Positions 20,487 through 56,932 of a stretch of DNA of 64,000 nucleotides are shown here, one piece after another; the first letter of the stretch is position 1, and each line of letters begins with the position of its first letter. Source of the DNA: a virus; the IMG/VR virus record IMGVR_UViG_3300026097_000980, positions 91,509 through 155,508 of that record, one strand, 5' to 3'. Made by a program: the position numbers and the translations under genes. Below the pieces are notes generated by a model, which worked only from the letters and a program-made list of their open reading frames with translations, was not told the DNA's origin and ran no database searches.

Positions 20487-20540
20487 TTTATTTCCTTCTG
20501 TGTGTGATATTGTTTAGATATCTAAGTATAGTTATAAAAG

Positions 20541-20562
20541 AAAAGCACCCGAAGGTGCTTTT
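20541..20562 (-). terminator. Terminator of tmRNA
   Basis: AAAAGCACC-cgaa-GGTGCTTTT. Confidence 0.8.
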
Positions 20563-20878
20563 CTGACTTTTGGATTACAAGGCAGTCAACCCCGAAGCCT
20601 CATGCGGCCAGTGCGAATGTTTCATCATTTGCAGTTATTTTATTTTGCTTCTACGACCGGGTATACTCCCAATCCTAACGGCTTTCACATTGCCGGTAAC
20701 TCCACTCGCCTAATCATCTCGCCGTCGAATCCTTGATCTGCCCCATCATAGATACACCACGTTCTTCTCCTACTATTTCACCTTTCGGTCTACTCTCTCG
20801 GAGTTGTAGATGTATCTATGGTGGAACAGCCGGGAGTCGAACCCGGGTCCGTCAACCTTTCGGTCTGCTTCATCGTTA
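20563..20878 (-). ncRNA. ssrA: Circularly permuted (two-piece) tmRNA, tag ANDETFALAA
   Basis: Acceptor piece with T-arm CCGGGTTCGACTCCCGG and CTGTTCCACCA ending at 20819; 74-nt intervening stem; coding piece GGGGCAG...GGATTCGAC from 20744; G3-U70 pair; tag ORF 20632-20600. Confidence 0.92.
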
Positions 20879-20887
20879 CAGTATTAT

Positions 20888-21172
20888 TTAACTATCTTTT
20901 TTGCTGTCTGTCAAGTCTTCTAATTGCTTTTTTAAATTTAAGACTTGGATATGCAGTAACATGTTTTCCACAACCAATTTAGTCATAGATGCAAGGAGCA
21001 CAACTTTGTCTTCTTCTGTGTACTCTTCTTTATCGAATTGCTCCAGGATAGATGTTCCTATCATTTTAAAGGCTTCGTCTTTGCCTACAGATAATTTATC
21101 CCAAGGAATAGGATCTCCCGATTCCGCTTCTTTAGCGATGTCTACTAATAATTCTAAATCAATTTCTCTCAT
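20888..21172 (-). CDS. Hypothetical protein
   Basis: 94-aa ORF coupled to upstream gene. Confidence 0.6.
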   Translation of the reverse strand: MREIDLELLVDIAKEAESGDPIPWDKLSVGKDEAFKMIGTSILEQFDKEEYTEEDKVVLLASMTKLVVENMLLHIQVLNLKKQLEDLTDSKKDS

Positions 21173-34892: not shown

Positions 34893-36005
34893 TCAGTTCA
34901 GTGTGAATCTTTTGCGAGGGACCAGCTTGACTTTTTCGCCATGTTTGACATACCCTTCTCCGCCTTTCTCTGAACCTATGTTTGCTATAACATCGCCTTC
35001 AGCGGCATCTAGTTCGCGAATAACTTCGTCTTTGGCTGACATAATCTGTCTTACCAAGTCGATAATATCTGCGGTTATGTCTTCAACAGTATTATCATTC
35101 TTCACAACAAATTCTTGTGCTAGGTCGAGAACTCGCTGTCTTTTTGGATCAGTAAGTTTGGCTTCTTCTTTTTGCAAATAATCTAAGAATGACTCTTTGC
35201 TGAGATCATCCAGCCTACGCTGTTTGCCCATATAGTTTACATAACGATAGAATATTTCTTGTATGTCGGCTAAGCCTTTTCTTGGAGCAAAGAACTCTTT
35301 TATTCTGGATTGAACTTTTTTAGCTTTTGCATCTATATTATCTAAATTTTCTACGTCAACTTCTGGCTTGCTGTCAACATATGTTTGTCCTAACACCGCA
35401 ACATCACCTTTAAACAAATCTTGTCCGTCGAATGGTTTGCCTTGTTTAGACCCAAACTCGTCAAATATTGCAGTAGCTGCCACAGCGGCTTTTTTACCTT
35501 GAAGTTTTGCACCGACTTCGCTGTCAGTTTTGACTGTGTAGGTTACTTTATTTGGTGTAAACACGATGCTTCCATCTGTTGATTGTGCAGGTCTTCCTGG
35601 ATGAAACAGTATGTCTGCATATACAAATCCACGAAAGTCTTTTGGAGTTGCACTTTCAAATATTGGCCACAGTGCCGCCATATCGCCTGCAAACTTTTCA
35701 CGCCATTCTTCGCCCTTACCAGTCGATAAAATAAAGTCTGCTAGATCATCTGCACTGGTTGTTTTGTTTCTTCCCCAGCCATTCTTTCCTGTGAGAATAA
35801 ATGTTCCGTCACTGTCTCTGCCCCAGTACATTGTGGGATACCCGTCCCACTTCACAGCGACATCTTTAGCGCCTTGTTCCATATTTCGTAGTATTTCTAC
35901 AGCACGAACAGCACCGTTCTCTGGATCTGTAAACACTAGGTCTTCTAGGTGATTAAACTCTCTACCTACTTTTTTAGCTTCTGTTAGGATTTCAAACGCT
36001 CTCAT
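34893..36005 (-). CDS. Ligase-like covalent nucleotidyltransferase (RNA-ligase-like)
   Basis: VKWDG (motif I), GGEGYV (IV), VKLVPR (V); N-terminus MRAFEILTE. Confidence 0.55.
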   Translation of the reverse strand: MRAFEILTEAKKVGREFNHLEDLVFTDPENGAVRAVEILRNMEQGAKDVAVKWDGYPTMYWGRDSDGTFILTGKNGWGRNKTTSADDLADFILSTGKGEEWREKFAGDMAALWPIFESATPKDFRGFVYADILFHPGRPAQSTDGSIVFTPNKVTYTVKTDSEVGAKLQGKKAAVAATAIFDEFGSKQGKPFDGQDLFKGDVAVLGQTYVDSKPEVDVENLDNIDAKAKKVQSRIKEFFAPRKGLADIQEIFYRYVNYMGKQRRLDDLSKESFLDYLQKEEAKLTDPKRQRVLDLAQEFVVKNDNTVEDITADIIDLVRQIMSAKDEVIRELDAAEGDVIANIGSEKGGEGYVKHGEKVKLVPRKRFTLN

Positions 36006-36202
36006 TAAATTGCCTTCTCACCTGTTAGATGCGGCATCGAAAACCAAAGTTTGAACCATTCGGGTGTACCTGGTTTAATATTGTGTTTCTTTTCGAGTCG
36101 TTGTTTTTCTGTGCCTGTAATTGAAAGGTTCTCAGGAACATATTCAGTGTATCCTTTAAACTCGTTAACCCCTGCTAATTTTTTAAGTTCGTTTATGGTC
36201 AT
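36005..36202 (-). CDS. Hypothetical protein
   Basis: ELKKLAG...IKPGTPEWFKLWF. Confidence 0.6.
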   Translation of the reverse strand: MTINELKKLAGVNEFKGYTEYVPENLSITGTEKQRLEKKHNIKPGTPEWFKLWFSMPHLTGEKAI

Positions 36203-36966
36203 GATACTATATCTATCATCGATCTCATCCAGCCGATAGTTCCGGGTTGGAAAGATTCTATCTGTTTGTGACTGGGCAGTTCAATGCCTTGCTTGCCTAG
36301 TGTTTCTCTAGCATCCACTGTGAGTTCTTCATAGTTAGGAAGCTTTTTAATAAAGTCCATAATCTTTGGAAAGCTCATTGCGATTTCTGCTGTGGCTGTT
36401 GGCCCTAGCAAAATCTTTGCAATTTGATTAGGGTCTTTTGTAATAACTTCATTGGTTGCTCTGTCAACAAGTCCTTGGGTGTAGCTCCACTTTAGTCCTT
36501 GCGGATATTCATCGCTGATCTTTGCTTTGCCGATACTGTTTAAAAGTATATGGCGATGCTGTCCTTTGATACCATCTTCGCCATACTCGCCTGCCATTGA
36601 AAACTTTAACCATTCAGGGTCGCCGAACATAAAATCAGTCTGTACAAATCCGTTTTCTTCTTTGCCGTTAATTGGTGTTTTGAAATGAACACTAATTCCG
36701 GATTTAGCAACAGCATTTTCTAAACCTGCTTGTTCTGCATAGGCTTTCAGCTTTGATTCTAGATCGCCTTTAGATGTAGAAGCCACGTCTACCGCAAGAT
36801 CTAAATCACCCGAAGTAGGCTTTTTGCCAGTAGTGCCCAGCATGTTATCTGACAACGGTAATCCTGTGATGCCTTCAAGATATTTAACAGTTGACTCAAC
36901 ATCACCTTGATTGATGCGTTGAGTTAGACTATTGCCTTCGCTGTCTTTAAATACATTTCCGCTCAT
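36199..36966 (-). CDS. Pol-beta-superfamily nucleotidyltransferase
   Basis: LGTTGKKPTSGDLDLAVD and VQTDFM acidic triad. Confidence 0.65.
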   Translation of the reverse strand: MSGNVFKDSEGNSLTQRINQGDVESTVKYLEGITGLPLSDNMLGTTGKKPTSGDLDLAVDVASTSKGDLESKLKAYAEQAGLENAVAKSGISVHFKTPINGKEENGFVQTDFMFGDPEWLKFSMAGEYGEDGIKGQHRHILLNSIGKAKISDEYPQGLKWSYTQGLVDRATNEVITKDPNQIAKILLGPTATAEIAMSFPKIMDFIKKLPNYEELTVDARETLGKQGIELPSHKQIESFQPGTIGWMRSMIDIVS

Positions 36967-37217
36967 CGTTCTTTTGACTCTATTACTTTTTTCATGCCAC
37001 GTTTAAACTTGTTGGAATCCTGTCCTTTAATACTGTTGATCAATCTTCTTTCTAATTCGTCAGCGGTTTCACTGTCATAGTGATTGCGAAGACTTTCAAT
37101 AAGATTGACTGCACTATTGATTACGTTCACAGCCCTGGACTCTATTATACGATCAGTGTCTCTGTGATTACCAAAGTCGTTTAGCTCTTGTAATATTGAT
37201 CTAGTTTTTAATTTCAT
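36963..37217 (-). CDS. Hypothetical protein
   Basis: 84-aa ORF at head of operon. Confidence 0.6.
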   Translation of the reverse strand: MKLKTRSILQELNDFGNHRDTDRIIESRAVNVINSAVNLIESLRNHYDSETADELERRLINSIKGQDSNKFKRGMKKVIESKER

Positions 37218-37381
37218 AACACCAACTTAGTTTAATTTATTTACCGAAGTTTGTCTACATTTTTTACATCCAGAATAAAATGTTAAATTTTGATTAATTT
37301 TTTTGTGCGAGTGCTAAATATTGTTGCAAAGCACAATAACTGTGCTACAATAGTATAACACACAAAAGGAACTTTCACACA

Positions 37382-37573
37382 ATGAAAAAACTCTTAAATT
37401 GGATCTCACAAGGACTCAAAAGAACTTCTCAGACAGAAGAAGAACGTTATCTGTCACAGGCAACTGATCTAGCTGATCTAGAAAGACGTCAAAGATTACT
37501 TACCTACGGTAAGGCACCTCATCAAACAGGATATCAATACTATCACGATGTCCGCGGTGGGAGAGCGGTATAA
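37382..37573 (+). CDS. Small protein, DUF3563-like
   Basis: EERYLSQATDLADLERRQR. Confidence 0.6.
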   Translation: MKKLLNWISQGLKRTSQTEEERYLSQATDLADLERRQRLLTYGKAPHQTGYQYYHDVRGGRAV

Positions 37574-37782
37574 TGGAACAGTCAATGCAATCAAGCAGAA
37601 ATGGCGTAGCGTTTAGACGACCAACCTTTGACGGCTGGCGAATCCTTAAAAACTTCTGGAAGGGAGTAGCTTGGAGACTAGAGCTCTTAGGTAGAGCAAA
37701 GGCAGCATCAGAACTGTCAAGAATGGGCTATCATGATCAAGCCAAAGAGCTGATGATGGAAATGCTCAAGGAGAGACGTTAG
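37573..37782 (+). CDS. Small host-like hypothetical protein
   Basis: GRAKAASELSRMGYHDQAK; translationally coupled. Confidence 0.55.
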   Translation: MEQSMQSSRNGVAFRRPTFDGWRILKNFWKGVAWRLELLGRAKAASELSRMGYHDQAKELMMEMLKERR

Positions 37783-38013
37783 TTCAACCTAACACAGACC
37801 AGTGTCATCATAATGATACTGTTATCACTGAACGGTGCAGGGAAGTACCGTTCAACACTAGACGCAGAGACACATAGGAGAAAACATCGTGGCACATATA
37901 CCATACTTTGGCGAAGATGAACCCAAAAAAGATTCTAAGCCAGTTGACAAGAAATAAATAATAATGTTACGTTAGTAACACATTACACATACACACACAA
38001 AAGGAGAAATGTA

Positions 38014-38334
38014 ATGAATGACTTTAATCAAGTTACACAACAACTCTCTGCTATGGCAGAGCAATTCAAAGACATGGCGGCACAGTATACGCCAAAAGCA
38101 CCAGAAGTTAAGTTCAATCGTAACGGTTATGAAATCCGTACAGAAGTTCTTGATATGGCCAAAGCATTCACAGAGTTTGAATACTCAATGAAGTTTACTG
38201 GTTGGGAACAAACTGTAACACGCGATCCAGAAACTGGCGAAGTTGTTACCACAGTTGAAGTTCCATCTGTACCTGGTGTTGATAAAGTTCTTGAGAACGC
38301 TGAAAAGTTCTATGAGTTTATAAATAAAAAGTGA
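38014..38334 (+). CDS. Hypothetical protein
   Basis: Strong SD; NGYEIRTEVLDMAK...AEKFYEF. Confidence 0.7.
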   Translation: MNDFNQVTQQLSAMAEQFKDMAAQYTPKAPEVKFNRNGYEIRTEVLDMAKAFTEFEYSMKFTGWEQTVTRDPETGEVVTTVEVPSVPGVDKVLENAEKFYEFINKK

Positions 38335-38386
38335 ACAAACTACTAAGACAATCAGGGACATAGTCCTTATATAATAAAGTAGAGTT

Positions 38387-38413
38387 GAAAGGGTCTTCGG
38401 ACCCTTTCTTTTT
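38387..38413 (+). terminator. Intrinsic terminator
   Basis: GAAAGGGTC-ttcg-GACCCTTTC-T5. Confidence 0.85.
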
Positions 38414-38450
38414 GGTTGACAATTCATAAATCATCAGCTATATTAGCAGT

Positions 38451-39041
38451 ATGATGAAAAATAAAGTAATATTAACAGACGTTGATGGCGTCCTCTTTGA
38501 CTGGCAGTATTCATTTGAAAACTGGATGAATCGACACGGTTATGAAATGAATCTCGATCACAAAGATGATTATCTAATGGATAAAAAGTACGGGATCGAT
38601 AAAAAAGAGTCTAAGCGTTTAATCCGCATGTTCAATGAAAGTGCTTGGATACGTAGACTTCCGCCTTTTAGAGATGCTATCCATTATGTAAGAAGATTGC
38701 ATCAAGAACACGGGTATGTTTTTCATGCTATTACAAGTTTAAGTAATGATCAATATTCTCAACATCTTCGCACAAAGAATCTTAGAGAAATGTTTGGAGA
38801 CACTGTATTTGAAGATTACGTATATCTAGATACTGGCGCTGACAAGGACGAAGTATTAGAAATCTATAGAGACACAGATTGCTGGTGGGTCGAAGACAAA
38901 CCTCAAAATGCTTTGGTTGGTAGGGATCTTGGGTTGAGTTCAATCCTAATGGATCACTCCCATAACCAAGGAGAATTTTCCGGAGTCACAAGGGTAAGGA
39001 ACTGGAAAGAAATATATAGTATCATAATAGGAGAAAAATAA
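38451..39041 (+). CDS. HAD-family 5'(3')-nucleotidase-like phosphatase
   Basis: LTDVDGVL, ITS, WVEDK; TTGACA-17-TATATT ends 6 nt before ATG. Confidence 0.8.
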   Translation: MMKNKVILTDVDGVLFDWQYSFENWMNRHGYEMNLDHKDDYLMDKKYGIDKKESKRLIRMFNESAWIRRLPPFRDAIHYVRRLHQEHGYVFHAITSLSNDQYSQHLRTKNLREMFGDTVFEDYVYLDTGADKDEVLEIYRDTDCWWVEDKPQNALVGRDLGLSSILMDHSHNQGEFSGVTRVRNWKEIYSIIIGEK

Positions 39042-53132: not shown

Positions 53133-53285
53133 CAGAACTGTTATTGTGTGTGTGCATAGGCTCCGCCGTGGGAATTTTTATATATCTACTGACCTAACTG
53201 TGTATCTTTGTGTAGGATAGGCCCCGCTGTAAGGTGCGCACACACACGTATGTGAGGGTATAGTGTAGAATTGTGTGCCAAACTG

Positions 53286-53569
53286 TGTGGAAAAGTGTGA
53301 CAAAGTGTGATATTGTGTGGTATTGTAGCAATGCCTGTCATCCCCTCCATCCTGATTCACAATTCTCCACAGTAAATCTACCGTTTCCCCCAGAATATGA
53401 CTCACTTTCGGGGTTTCACTGTGCATAAATCACACAATCTGAGTGGATATCACTGTGGATAAGTCGGTGATTTCACAGTTCGACCTGCGCATAAGTGATA
53501 TTATGTTAAATCACAGTCCCTCTACTGTACACACAGAGTTATCCACAGTACAGTACACAGTTATCCACA
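53286..53569. promoter_or_regulatory. DnaA-box cluster
   Basis: Perfect TTATCCACA at 53539 and 53561, reverse copy at 53454; single-mismatch copies at 53286, 53363, 53420. Confidence 0.75.
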
Positions 53570-53680
53570 GTGTGTAGAACAGCGACAGAAGATTCTATAC
53601 TACTGTGTAGACCGCATAGGCCCCGCTGTAACACATATACATATACACACGTGTATGTGGGCACACAGTGTAAATACAAT

Positions 53681-53827
53681 ATGCAGATACACAAGTATCA
53701 CAACACATACATTATAGAGTGGGCGGATGGTTCATACACAGTAGTAAGTGAAGACTCGGTGGATGACAGTTGGTCAGAGCTTGCTGATATACTGGATACA
53801 CTGCATGACGGTGAACAGCCCCAATAG
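53681..53827 (+). CDS. Small acidic hypothetical protein (MQIHKYH...)
   Basis: TAAATA 4 nt before ATG; bracketed by two 14-mer repeats. Confidence 0.5.
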   Translation: MQIHKYHNTYIIEWADGSYTVVSEDSVDDSWSELADILDTLHDGEQPQ

Positions 53828-53900
53828 GCCCCGCTGTAACACATGCGCATATGCGTATAAAGAGGTTGACACACCCTGTGTTTGATCATACTATAACTGT

Positions 53901-54197: not shown

Positions 54198-54274
54198 GCG
54201 CCTATAGCTCAGTTGGTTAGAGCAGGGGACTCATAATCCCTTGGCCCGAGGTTCGAGTCCTCGTGGGCGCACCA
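54198..54274 (+). tRNA. tRNA with CAT anticodon, Ile2-like (elongator Met not excluded)
   Basis: Cloverleaf, AGGGA-like arm with CTCATAA loop, encoded CCA. Confidence 0.9.
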
Positions 54275-54279
54275 TAACA

Positions 54280-54355
54280 CTCTCGGTAGCATAATGGATA
54301 ATGCAACAGCCTTCTAAGCTGTGGATTGCAGGTTCGAGTCCTGCCCGGGAGGCCA
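54280..54355 (+). tRNA. tRNA-Arg(TCT)
   Basis: ACAGC-CTTCTAA-GCTGT anticodon arm; GGTTCGAGTCC; CCA. Confidence 0.92.
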
Positions 54356-54359
54356 CTTT

Positions 54360-54446
54360 GCCAGTATGGTGGAATTGGTAGACACAATGGACTTAAAATC
54401 CATCGCCCGCAAGGGTATCCCGGTTCGAGTCCGGGTACTGGTACCA
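54360..54446 (+). tRNA. tRNA-Leu(TAA)
   Basis: ATGGA-CTTAAAA-TCCAT arm, long variable arm, CCA. Confidence 0.93.
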
Positions 54447-54567
54447 CGTTGAACAACAGTTGAACAAAAAAGTTTTACTGTTCACCATTTGTCCTAAAAA
54501 TAACACTTTACACATACGTGCGCAGACGTTACTATATACACATACTTTAAAAAACGGAGCGTACACT

Positions 54568-54819
54568 ATGCAAAATTACACAACTGCTGTTGCAAGCGTT
54601 ATTGCTTACTATGCAAAAATGATTGCAGAAGCAAGCTACGACTCAGTAGCGGAAGCAAGCGACTACAGCATTACAGACAACTGCGCAAAAATACAGTACT
54701 TGCTTGCGGAAAGTGCGCAACACACTACTGTGCAAAGTTTAGCAGTTGCCGCAATAAACAGCAGTGCGGATACAGTAGTACGCGAATGCATGTACACACA
54801 ATTAATGCAACACACGTAG
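54568..54819 (+). CDS. Early hypothetical protein (DTVVRE motif)
   Basis: Own promoter and GGAGCG SD; start MQNYTT. Confidence 0.7.
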   Translation: MQNYTTAVASVIAYYAKMIAEASYDSVAEASDYSITDNCAKIQYLLAESAQHTTVQSLAVAAINSSADTVVRECMYTQLMQHT

Positions 54820-54899
54820 TTAATAGTAAAACACAATTGTACACTGTAGCATGCATGTGTTACTATATACACATACTAAACAAAACGGAGCGTGTATAT

Positions 54900-55109
54900 A
54901 TGTTAACTACTAAGCAACTTAGTGCTAAAACGTTTGTAACATACTGTAGTACTACTAACACACTGTTTTTGCACAAGCAAAAAGTAAAACCCAAAAACGT
55001 AGCATTTGCTACAGCGGATTTTGTAGTTAAAAATGCGGCTGTGCAACAAGTTAAAAAGTTTTTTGCACTGCCCGCGCTGTACAACTTACGTAAAAAAACT
55101 GCAACTTAA
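54900..55109 (+). CDS. Early basic hypothetical protein
   Basis: Own promoter and GGAGCG SD; start MLTTKQ. Confidence 0.65.
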   Translation: MLTTKQLSAKTFVTYCSTTNTLFLHKQKVKPKNVAFATADFVVKNAAVQQVKKFFALPALYNLRKKTAT

Positions 55110-55193
55110 TTGCAAAAAACACTTGCACTATGTGTGCAAGTGTGCTACTATATACACATACACTAAACAATTAACTGCATTAGGAGCGAACTT

Positions 55194-55640
55194 ATGCAAT
55201 ACTGTAATATTAATACACACTGCGCTGTGGTTGATAGCGCAAACTATGCACTGCTTACAGCAGAACAACAGCAAACACTTACACAAGCGGAAAAGTGTTT
55301 TGTTGTGCAATTTTTAGCAGATACACTTGCAAGCTTAACACAACTTAATAATGCAAGTGTAGTTGAGGGTGAGGAGTACGTTATACGTTTAACGGACGCA
55401 CTTGAAGTTATGCAAAACTTGCAAGCACTGTATGAAACGTATGAGGATGATAACGCACAGTTAACGTTTACAATAGCAGATGCGGGTGCGGCAATTTGTA
55501 GTTACGATACAGAGTACAGAGAGTGCATTGCGGAGCAATTTGAGTGTGCGTGTGATGAGCAAGCAAAACTTGCAAAGCAATTGCACACTACTGGTGCGGA
55601 CTATAGCACACTTGCACTGCGTGTAATTTACGCTTACTAA
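55194..55640 (+). CDS. Early acidic hypothetical protein (DTEYRE motif)
   Basis: Own promoter and GGAGCGAA SD. Confidence 0.75.
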   Translation: MQYCNINTHCAVVDSANYALLTAEQQQTLTQAEKCFVVQFLADTLASLTQLNNASVVEGEEYVIRLTDALEVMQNLQALYETYEDDNAQLTFTIADAGAAICSYDTEYRECIAEQFECACDEQAKLAKQLHTTGADYSTLALRVIYAY

Positions 55641-55709
55641 AAAAACACTTGACAAAGTGTGCGTATGCTGTTATAGTATACGCATACTTTAAATACAGGA
55701 GCGTACACT

Positions 55710-55877
55710 ATGCAAGCAAAGCAAGCATACACTGTTAACTTAACAGCAAACGAAGTTAGCACACTGCTAGAGTTAGTAAAAGCGGAGCAACAGCACTACG
55801 AGGACAGTGAGGACACAACAGACGTTGCTGTGTACACACTGTGCGACAACATACTAAACAAATTGTATAACGCATAA
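55710..55877 (+). CDS. Early 55-aa acidic protein (MQAKQAY...; not in ORF track)
   Basis: Own promoter and GGAGCG SD. Confidence 0.7.
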   Translation: MQAKQAYTVNLTANEVSTLLELVKAEQQHYEDSEDTTDVAVYTLCDNILNKLYNA

Positions 55878-55945
55878 AAAACACTTGACAACTGTGTATG
55901 TGTGTGCTATAGTATACACATACACTAAACAAAACGGAGCGAACA

Positions 55946-56128
55946 ATGACAGTAGCAGAACTTGTAGCACAGCTACAGCAACTTCCACAAGACCTCGCAG
56001 TCACAGCGTTTTCACATCAACAAGCACAAGAGCTTGAACTGTATAGTGCGGAACTGTTTGAAGCAATGGGCACACCTGAAGATGAGCACTATATTCCAGA
56101 ATCAGTCACACTGCACTTCGACGTATAA
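55946..56128 (+). CDS. Early hypothetical protein
   Basis: MTVAELVAQLQQLPQD; promoter and SD. Confidence 0.7.
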   Translation: MTVAELVAQLQQLPQDLAVTAFSHQQAQELELYSAELFEAMGTPEDEHYIPESVTLHFDV

Positions 56129-56137
56129 GGAGCGAAC

Positions 56138-56932
56138 ATGCCAGCCAAAAGAGAAACAGATGCGGAAATTGTCGAACGCTTACGCGAGCGTTTCGATATC
56201 CTTAACTTAATGACAGCCGCTGTTAAAGCAGGCGATATCCGAGCAATGATTGTAACAGGTCCTCCGGGTGTGGGCAAGAGTTTCGGTGTTCAAGCCACAC
56301 TAGAGAAGGACGACCTATTCGCCACACTGGGCAATCGTCCACCCAAGTATGAGTTTGTTAAAGGTGCTATGAGTGCAGTGGGCTTGTACGCCAAACTGTA
56401 TCAGTATAGTGCTCGAGACGAAGTCCTAGTGTTTGATGACTGTGATAGCATTCTACTAGACGATCTCTCGCTTAACATTTTAAAGGCCGCATTGGATTCG
56501 GGCAAGAAGCGCATGATCCATTGGAACACGGATTCACGTAGCCTACGACAGGAAGGCATCCCTCACAGCTTTGAGTACAAGGGCGGTGCTATCTTCATCA
56601 CCAACCTTAAGTTTGAGAACGTGCGTAGCAAGAAACTAAAGGACCACCTTGAGGCATTAGAGTCACGCTGTCACCACATTGACTTGGGCATGGACACTGA
56701 TCGTGAAAAGGTTCTGCGCATCAAACAGATTGTGCAGGATGGCATGCTAGACGGATATGATCTTGCCAGCGACATCAAAGACAGCATTGTAGACTACGTA
56801 GTTGCCAACAAAGAACGACTGCGCGAACTCAGCCTGCGTTCAGTGTTGAAGATTGCAGACTTAGCCAAAGCACACCCGGATCGTTGGGAGCGCATGGCTG
56901 AGGTCACTGTGATGCGGAGGGCTCGTTCATGA
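56138..56932 (+). CDS. AAA+ ATPase
   Basis: Walker A GPPGVGKS, Walker B LVFDDCD, FITN, ALESR. Confidence 0.88.
   Translation: MPAKRETDAEIVERLRERFDILNLMTAAVKAGDIRAMIVTGPPGVGKSFGVQATLEKDDLFATLGNRPPKYEFVKGAMSAVGLYAKLYQYSARDEVLVFDDCDSILLDDLSLNILKAALDSGKKRMIHWNTDSRSLRQEGIPHSFEYKGGAIFITNLKFENVRSKKLKDHLEALESRCHHIDLGMDTDREKVLRIKQIVQDGMLDGYDLASDIKDSIVDYVVANKERLRELSLRSVLKIADLAKAHPDRWERMAEVTVMRRARS

Follow-up and report, generated by a model that had tools for sequence, protein, structure and literature searches.

The early regions of phages T7 and T5 are poor in restriction sites, and messages that lack ACA resist MazF. In phages with DpdA systems, guanine is modified in short sequence contexts, which in iggy consist solely of GA (97% of these sites are modified) and in CAjan of GA and GGC (PMC10484667; PMC7544227). 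The DNA of the Pseudomonas jumbo phage PA5oct, which encodes QueE and PTPS, resists five enzymes, and its authors infer a modified G at GA and/or GG. In addition, the enzyme CmdT attaches ADP-ribose to the A of GA in single-stranded RNA and stops translation when T-even phages infect, and the CmdT authors deemed escape by recoding implausible (bioRxiv 10.1101/2024.02.24.581662). The primary binding clefts of the termination factor Rho take 5'-YC dinucleotides (Y, pyrimidine; PMC12360218), and an avoidance of Rho through base composition is on record for Bacilli and has been described as an obstacle to phages (PMC13323073). Here, we describe a block of small early genes in IMG/VR virus record IMGVR_UViG_3300026097_000980 from which the dinucleotides TC and CC are purged on the coding strand; no published description of such blocks was found in the literature. 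The window that we analysed (64,000 nt, positions 91,509 to 155,508 of the record) forms the right end of a contig (G000) of 155,508 bp with a CheckV completeness of 42%, which implies a full genome of roughly 350 kb or more. Unless stated otherwise, positions are those of the window.

TC and CC are purged from a block of early genes

Transcription switches to the + strand about 54 kb into the window, and the block that follows consists of small early genes (o1 to o4 and the beginning of o5; Table 1), as an earlier reading of the letters alone (the original prediction) had held. On this strand, a TC at 54643 is followed by the next one only at 55984. The 1341-nt gap, which that reading had pointed out, was confirmed: not a single TC occurs at 54644-55983, where 63.2 would be expected from the local base composition (Poisson probability of zero, about 1e-27). 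The runner-up among TC gaps in the whole contig is 165 nt long, and besides TC and CC no dinucleotide has a gap above 342 nt anywhere in it. CC was observed five times compared with 51 expected (54749, 54990-91 and 55071-72), within the three stretches to which it had been said to be confined (54749, 54990-92 and 55071-73), and four of the five fall in two CCC proline codons. Apart from these few sites, C in the block always stands after a purine, with ratios of 1.62 for AC and 1.96 for GC. The C content is normal (19.6%, with 20.3% G), and there is no general purine excess (56% in the block and 55% in the neighbouring genes).

The depletion is all-or-none per gene and spans open reading frames (ORFs), leaders and internal promoters alike. 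The TC counts of o1, o2, o3 and o4 are 1, 0, 0 and 0, and the remaining early ORFs up to 63.5 kb contain about as many TC as expected. Exactly four of the 234 ORFs of the contig that are preceded by a Shine-Dalgarno (SD) site are TC-low, and the gene-level edges of the purged block are sharp. Moreover, the four internal spacers, 301 nt in total, hold no YC, compared with 8.6 YC per 100 nt in the early spacers outside the block. Together, the proteins of o1-o4 (355 residues) contain only two Pro and three Gly and lack Trp, and the one that starts at 54900 (o2) has a single Asp and no Glu, Gly or Trp. The -35 boxes of the first three promoters (TTTACA, TGTACA and TTGCAC) are free of GA, and P4 and P5 keep TTGACA. 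These observations bear out the claim that the avoidance reshapes both promoters and proteins.

Codon-order shuffles, a control proposed together with the original prediction, provide a measure at codon junctions that is independent of amino-acid choice. At the junctions of o1-o4, we found no TC (16.9 expected), no CC (9.9 expected) and a single GA (20.8 expected; all P<2e-4), and GG showed no significant depletion (18 versus 23.5). Control early genes had none of the junction depletions of TC, CC and GA. Codon junctions had been listed among the places to which GA and GG withdraw, and this is right for GG but wrong for GA. The block holds 54 GA, of which 40 lie in Asp/Glu codons and 10 are intergenic, the latter comprising five in GGAG SD sites, two in TTGACA and three others. 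GA is thus removed wherever coding allows, which leaves the ban on TC and CC unexplained. Read on the copied strand, the same ban means no 5'-GA and almost no 5'-GG. A codon-level or tRNA-level cause was ruled out, because junction positions and untranslated spacers obey the same rule.

The ban is kept in relatives and is confined to the early coding strand

Using o6 as a marker, we gathered 80 related loci and looked in them for the same depletion, as had been suggested. YC-poor runs of at least 300 nt are present in 16 of the 81 loci, always on the early coding strand and never on the other. TC-low windows of 240 nt number 245 on the early coding strand versus 6 on the opposite strand. The genes within the runs vary between relatives and encode small, mostly acidic, unrelated proteins. 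In the 20 run ORFs of the relatives (1716 codons), a codon ending in T is followed by one starting with C only once (55.5 expected), and CC spans a junction three times (50.4 expected). Serine is nearly always encoded by AGY, the codons TTC, ATC and CTC are absent, and proline makes up 0.1% of residues versus 2.7% in the neighbouring genes.

Where contigs encode o3 homologues (66-82% identity), TC is missing over blocks of 1650, 1287 and 652 nt. For o3, 24% of all possible substitutions and 30% of the synonymous ones would create a YC; the copies in the window and in locus L100 differ at 134 nt with no YC in either, and homologues that differ at 78-147 nt contain only 0-2. Independent assemblies from ENA, JGI and Logan all show the property, which contradicts the assembly artefact that the original prediction had allowed for. 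Taken together, these results show that the block is under strong purifying selection and is not a product of chance, assembly artefact or mutational decay.

The runs in relatives begin 10-90 nt past the same tRNA cluster. In L051 and L061, YC persists in the spacer of the first promoter, and the run begins at about the -10 box or transcription start. L002, the closest relative, retains only o2 and o5 after the tRNAs, and its o2 homologue (65% at the amino-acid level) is relaxed, with 2 TC and 8 CC. A tRNA-Met(CAT) gene accompanied by tRNA-Arg(TCT) and/or tRNA-Leu(TAA) lies directly upstream of YC-free genes in the window and in L002, L071, L073, L061 and L103.

The depletion is nested and acts on a true dinucleotide

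The depletion follows a nested order, TC > CC > GA(+) > GG(+). Windows of L048 and L066 that seemed to lack TC only were discarded, being antisense to a minus-strand fibre-like gene and reflecting protein composition, and the test of TC and CC classes was then redone on SD-preceded ORFs. Among 880 distinct ORFs of this kind, TC is low in 33 whose CC is also low or too scarce for scoring and in 13 whose CC is intermediate or normal, and no ORF combines low CC with normal TC. Two low-CC genes fall outside the TC-low class, and even in these TC is at about 0.2 of expectation. The junctions of the "TC-only" genes of L102 contain 2 TC (13.4 expected), 9 CC (10.1 expected) and 28 GA (27 expected). 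L100, L102 and L103 show the same order in their blocks with o3, and GA at codon junctions stands there at 5/21.8, 3/16.3 and 0/8.6 (observed/expected). In other relatives it ranges from 0/5.1 to 6/6.9, and it is not avoided in L004 (6/6.9) and L071 (4/3.8).

The residual TC sites show no flanking preference, and therefore the banned unit is a true dinucleotide. TNTC, TTC and TCA were rejected as the banned unit, as TC is avoided in every flanking context. A halo of early genes in which TC alone is depleted (about 0.1-0.2 of expectation, with normal CC and proline) flanks YC-free cores at L102 2172-3421 and 6013-6174 and at L073 1970-2203 and 3193-3444.

Layout of the locus

After promoter P0 and the tRNA cluster, five near-identical cassettes drive o1-o5 and are followed by o6 (Table 1). 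In each cassette, a sigma70-type promoter is followed by a leader rich in A and C and by an SD site, GGAGCG, and no terminator is predicted on the + strand before 57236.

Table 1. Features of the early region, in window coordinates
Feature	Position	Strand	Description	Basis
P0	54127..54155	+	Promoter, TTGACA-17-TATACT, ahead of the tRNA genes	
tRNA cluster	54198..54446	+	tRNA-Met(CAT), tRNA-Arg(TCT), tRNA-Leu(TAA)	
YC-poor block	54495..55983	+	1 TC and 5 CC in 1489 nt; strictly TC-free part 54644-55983	
P1	54507..54535	+	TTTACA-17-TACTAT, GA-free -35 box	
o1	54568..54819	+	83 aa, 1 TC and 1 CC, without Pro, Gly or Trp; homologue within the YC-free block of L100	
P2	54838..54866	+	TGTACA-17-TACTAT, GA-free -35 box	Read from sequence
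o2	54900..55109	+	69 aa, basic, 0 TC, 4 CC (two CCC Pro codons)	
P3	55123..55151	+	TTGCAC-17-TACTAT, GA-free -35 box	Read from sequence
o3	55194..55640	+	148 aa, acidic, 0 YC	
P4	55649..55677	+	TTGACA-17-TATAGT, TG extension	
o4	55710..55877	+	55 aa, acidic, 0 YC	
P5	55885..55913	+	TTGACA-17-TATAGT, TG extension, still within the YC-free run	
o5	55946..56128	+	60 aa; YC returns 38 nt in (TC at 55984), composition normal beyond	
o6	56138..56932	+	T4 NrdC.10-like AAA ATPase (phrog_1250), normal composition	
aa, amino acids; nt, nucleotides.

The best match of o6 among cultured phages is in PA5oct (46% identity). Family searches with o1-o5 in Pfam and PHROGs gave only noise, and a BicD coiled-coil label for these proteins was dismissed as such, being a threshold-level match. 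PA5oct encodes no homologues of them, and the contig contains no paralogues. The o3 protein has 306 metagenomic homologues and 65 invariant columns, and its AlphaFold2 model, helical with a pLDDT of 90, matched no structure in the PDB or BFVD at E<0.1. Only five homologues were found for o2.

Near the block, Rfam recognises the three tRNAs only. These tRNAs may serve the recoded genes, since the share of TTA among leucine codons rises from 10% to 24% in the YC-free genes. The non-coding stretch ahead of the early block (53150-53860) contains a 14-mer, AGGCCCCGCTGTAA, that recurs in the same orientation, and DnaA-box-like 9-mers, TTATCCACA. In the late region of the phage, ARAGORN found a permuted tmRNA-like gene (20509-20911, - strand) with the tag peptide ANDETFALAA.

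Discussion

Two readings lead among the explanations that we considered. The one that we prefer as the likeliest single cause, tentatively and at less than even odds, is that the template strand is kept without the phage's own modified guanine. The phage, like PA5oct, would replace or modify guanine in 5'-GA and, less so, in 5'-GG, and its first-needed genes would be written so that the strand copied by the host RNA polymerase carries no modifiable G. Parental virion DNA could then be transcribed at full yield right after injection. The bulky modified G itself might slow or stop the unmodified host polymerase, or it might be the site where host modification-dependent glycosylases or nucleases make lesions in the template that stop transcription. 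We propose that each site would cost yield multiplicatively, and that the number of sites would therefore be driven to zero with proline being sacrificed, while sites on the other strand would matter less, so that the depletion of GA(+) would be weaker and variable.

In keeping with this reading, the runs stay on the early coding strand and within transcription units, and the near-total loss of junction TC and CC and of proline speaks for a cost at each site. Both the dinucleotide steps missing from the template and their order, GA and then GG, match the published DpdA motifs. The depletion of GA on the opposite strand points to a DNA-level cause, because junction GA is lowered as well, both here (1/20.8) and in the blocks of L100, L102 and L103. 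A QueD/PTPS gene is present in the contig (genome positions 36816-37241, - strand; L099, G000 35316-38741), at 57 bits and 36% identical to that of iggy. Directly upstream of its tRNA-Met/Leu cluster, PA5oct has a promoter-repeat region that is free of GA and GG over 311 nt and of YC over 217 nt; this 311-bp region before tRNA-Met (MK797984.1 267252-267563, L098) is a tandem repeat of a promoter, TTGCAA-17-TATAAT, without GA, GG, TC or CC. The four 6-bp palindromes most avoided in the contig are AGCGCT and GCTAGC, which are both absent, ACTAGT (observed/expected, O/E, 0.06) and GTGCAC (O/E 0.19). All four lack GA, GG, TC and CC steps, which lends weak support to G modification. GTGCAC is the most avoided palindrome in PA5oct too (O/E 0.07).

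Two further features of PA5oct were noted. Repeats of tRNA-Met/Leu(UUA) occupy 267558-268247, a place comparable to that of the tRNA cluster in the window. Its longest YC-free run, a 244-nt element (MK797984.1 264905-265149), coincides with the annotated coding sequence EST35_0386, which reads like repeated GCATGCAAAATAACGCA-type regulatory or non-coding RNA sequence.

Several results weigh against modified guanine as the cause. Neither QueC nor FolE was found in the 155-kb contig, no QueC turned up in four large related contigs either, at 29-60% completeness, and Rfam gave no preQ1 riboswitch beside queD even at E 0.1. Purged genes are absent from PA5oct (0 of 291 ORFs TC-low), CAjan and iggy, all of which have reported or mapped GA modification, and thus GA modification by itself does not force recoding. 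The same type of promoter also precedes about 30 further early genes that are unpurged, and relatives without GA avoidance use GGTTGACA freely in promoters inside their blocks. We are not aware that derivatives of 7-deazaguanine have been demonstrated to hinder a bacterial RNA polymerase, and the modification of G in this phage is itself something that we infer. Searches with the Pfam TGT model PF01702 gave no match for DpdA in the contig or in PA5oct, but this probe also misses CAjan and iggy and is uninformative; BLAST with the CAjan and iggy ORFs returned no DpdA-like match in the 42%-complete contig. A 242-nt TC gap in CAjan lies inside a minus-strand gene and is no analogue of the block.

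The second leading reading, which we regard as somewhat unlikely, is that an enzyme in the infected cell hits single 5'-TC and, less, 5'-CC sites on mRNA or on the non-template DNA exposed by heavy transcription. Such an enzyme could belong to the defences of the host or serve the phage in host shutoff, and the YC-free genes, for example its inhibitors, would have to work while it is active. Candidates would be a CmdT-like ADP-ribosyltransferase, an endoribonuclease, an APOBEC/DddA-like deaminase or a T4 DenB-like nuclease of single-stranded DNA (ssDNA). Inactivation by one hit fits the zero tolerance and the on/off pattern, and CmdT is a precedent for a dinucleotide-specific anti-phage enzyme that acts on mRNA. 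Cytosine deaminases typically prefer TC over CC, the order observed here, and T4 endonuclease IV prefers TCA on ssDNA. GA is purged at free positions here (1/20.8) and not in other lineages, as would be expected if host repertoires differ, and the relaxed o2 of L002 fits the same idea. The block also adjoins phage tRNAs, another counter-defence item. However, neither bacteria nor phages are known to have an enzyme specific for YC in RNA or ssDNA, and our analysis identified none. A mark that does no more than block translation would not call for purged untranslated spacers, yet these are purged as well, and the transcripts continue without a terminator into the YC-rich o5 and o6, where a nuclease could enter from the 3' side. 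Furthermore, to account for the GA(+) depletion, the other strand would have to be exposed or another factor be at work, and other early genes with the same promoters are unprotected.

A further explanation, improbable in our view, is that YC-free transcripts cannot load Rho and hence are not terminated too early, at a time when the phage has yet to take control of host transcription. What is avoided, namely UC and CC in the sense strand of transcribed units, is the same as the specificity of the Rho primary binding site, with TC at 0/63 and CC at 5/51. However, Rho loading is cooperative and needs several YC per about 80 nt, and the last few sites should be neutral, yet proline in the relatives' runs is down to 0.1% and junction TC to 1/55. 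UC and CC also do not behave alike, as junction CC is normal in TC-only genes (9/10.1) and CC-only genes are nonexistent. Rho leaves the same-strand purge of GA unexplained, and there is no purine excess or C depletion (C 19.6%; purines 56% versus 55% in the neighbours). In addition, ORFs with strong SD sites should be covered by ribosomes, and Rho should not single out 4 of about 30 early genes.

The original prediction had itself explained the block as the first-injected, leading end of the genome, a stealth DNA that evades targets containing GA/TC or GG/CC. The duplex-reading systems evaded would be restriction-modification, Dnd/Ssp phosphorothioation, BREX, or CRISPR through protospacer-adjacent motifs such as TTC or CC. 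We consider this very unlikely. Sites containing GA/TC or GG/CC are necessarily absent from such DNA, and GATC, GGCC and CCGG are indeed missing, as was claimed; the single GANTC site (GACTC, 54641-45) uses the TC at 54643, just outside the TC-free part. Some blocks, this one included, purge GA on the coding strand as well. However, the rule is strongly asymmetric between the strands (245 versus 6 windows) and tracks transcription units, not a DNA end. Palindromic 6-mers are enriched in the 1489-bp block (40 versus about 23 expected, for example GTTAAC, TGCGCA, TGTACA and AAGCTT), and TGCA occurs 28 times. Evasion of DarT-type TNTC targets, also put forward, fails likewise, since TC is avoided whatever its flanks and not as TTC or TNTC. 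Finally, the block lies 8 kb inside the contig and is interior to relatives' contigs of up to 102 kb, with no terminus visible.

Still less likely is a damage-proof template without GG and GA oxidation sites, which would stay readable in the sunlight-damaged virions of surface water. One-electron oxidation preferentially strikes the 5' G in GG and GA, and the avoided steps, G before a purine, coincide with these hot spots. However, oxidation favours GG over GA, whereas here GA on the template is purged first and GG can stay normal, and the TC-only genes largely refute this explanation. Dipyrimidine damage by ultraviolet light was rejected, as it predicts purging of the opposite strand. The least credible explanation is that the block has no function and arose through a local bias of mutation, as a hitch-hiking mobile cassette or as an artefact of assembly: it is cassette-like and its gene content differs among relatives, but the independent assemblies agree, C is maintained in AC and GC contexts without simple decay, the proteins are conserved (o3 with its invariant columns and well-modelled fold), the two o3 copies 134 substitutions apart are both free of YC, and the gene-level edges are sharp.

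Comparison with known systems

A strand-specific two-letter ban that is kept at the cost of an amino acid argues for a strong agent that acts at single sites on phage early transcription, and an agent of this kind is previously undescribed. If the template is indeed kept free of modified guanine, then DNA hypermodification would carry a transcriptional cost, or a template vulnerability, strong enough to reshape coding and delete proline. The alternative outcome, a TC/CC-specific enzyme acting on mRNA or ssDNA, would be new biology as well. The block flags the tiny orphan genes most needed at the start of infection, which are priority candidates for functions in takeover or counter-defence, and it suggests that escape by recoding from a dinucleotide-reading factor is feasible for short genes. 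The nested hierarchy, the purge of the spacers inside the block and the PA5oct, CAjan and iggy controls are new results.

The DpdA systems of iggy, CAjan and PA5oct resemble this locus in that their modification contexts, GA and GG, are the steps missing from the copied strand of the block; PA5oct is also the nearest cultured relative, and the contig has a QueD/PTPS gene. In contrast, those phages are not known to have recoded genes free of modification, and we found none in PA5oct, CAjan and iggy; neither DpdA nor a full preQ0 pathway was seen in the contig, and such bases are not known to affect transcription. Rho avoidance by purine bias, the "hidden code" (PMC13323073), is likewise a sense-strand, transcription-linked loss of the dinucleotides bound by Rho. 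It is a genome-wide statistical bias, however, whereas the ban in the block is absolute, exact to the dinucleotide and limited to four genes, with TC told from CC and GA depleted. CmdTAC is similar as a defence that reads a bare dinucleotide on phage mRNA, and the block purges GA at free positions; but the target of CmdTAC is GA, whereas the block mainly bans TC and CC and keeps GGAG in its SD sites. The T7, T5 and MazF cases share with the block the principle that sequence avoidance shields what is expressed first or under attack. Their sites are 3-8 nt long, whereas the block follows a two-letter, strand-specific ban that removes an amino acid and leaves palindromes plentiful.

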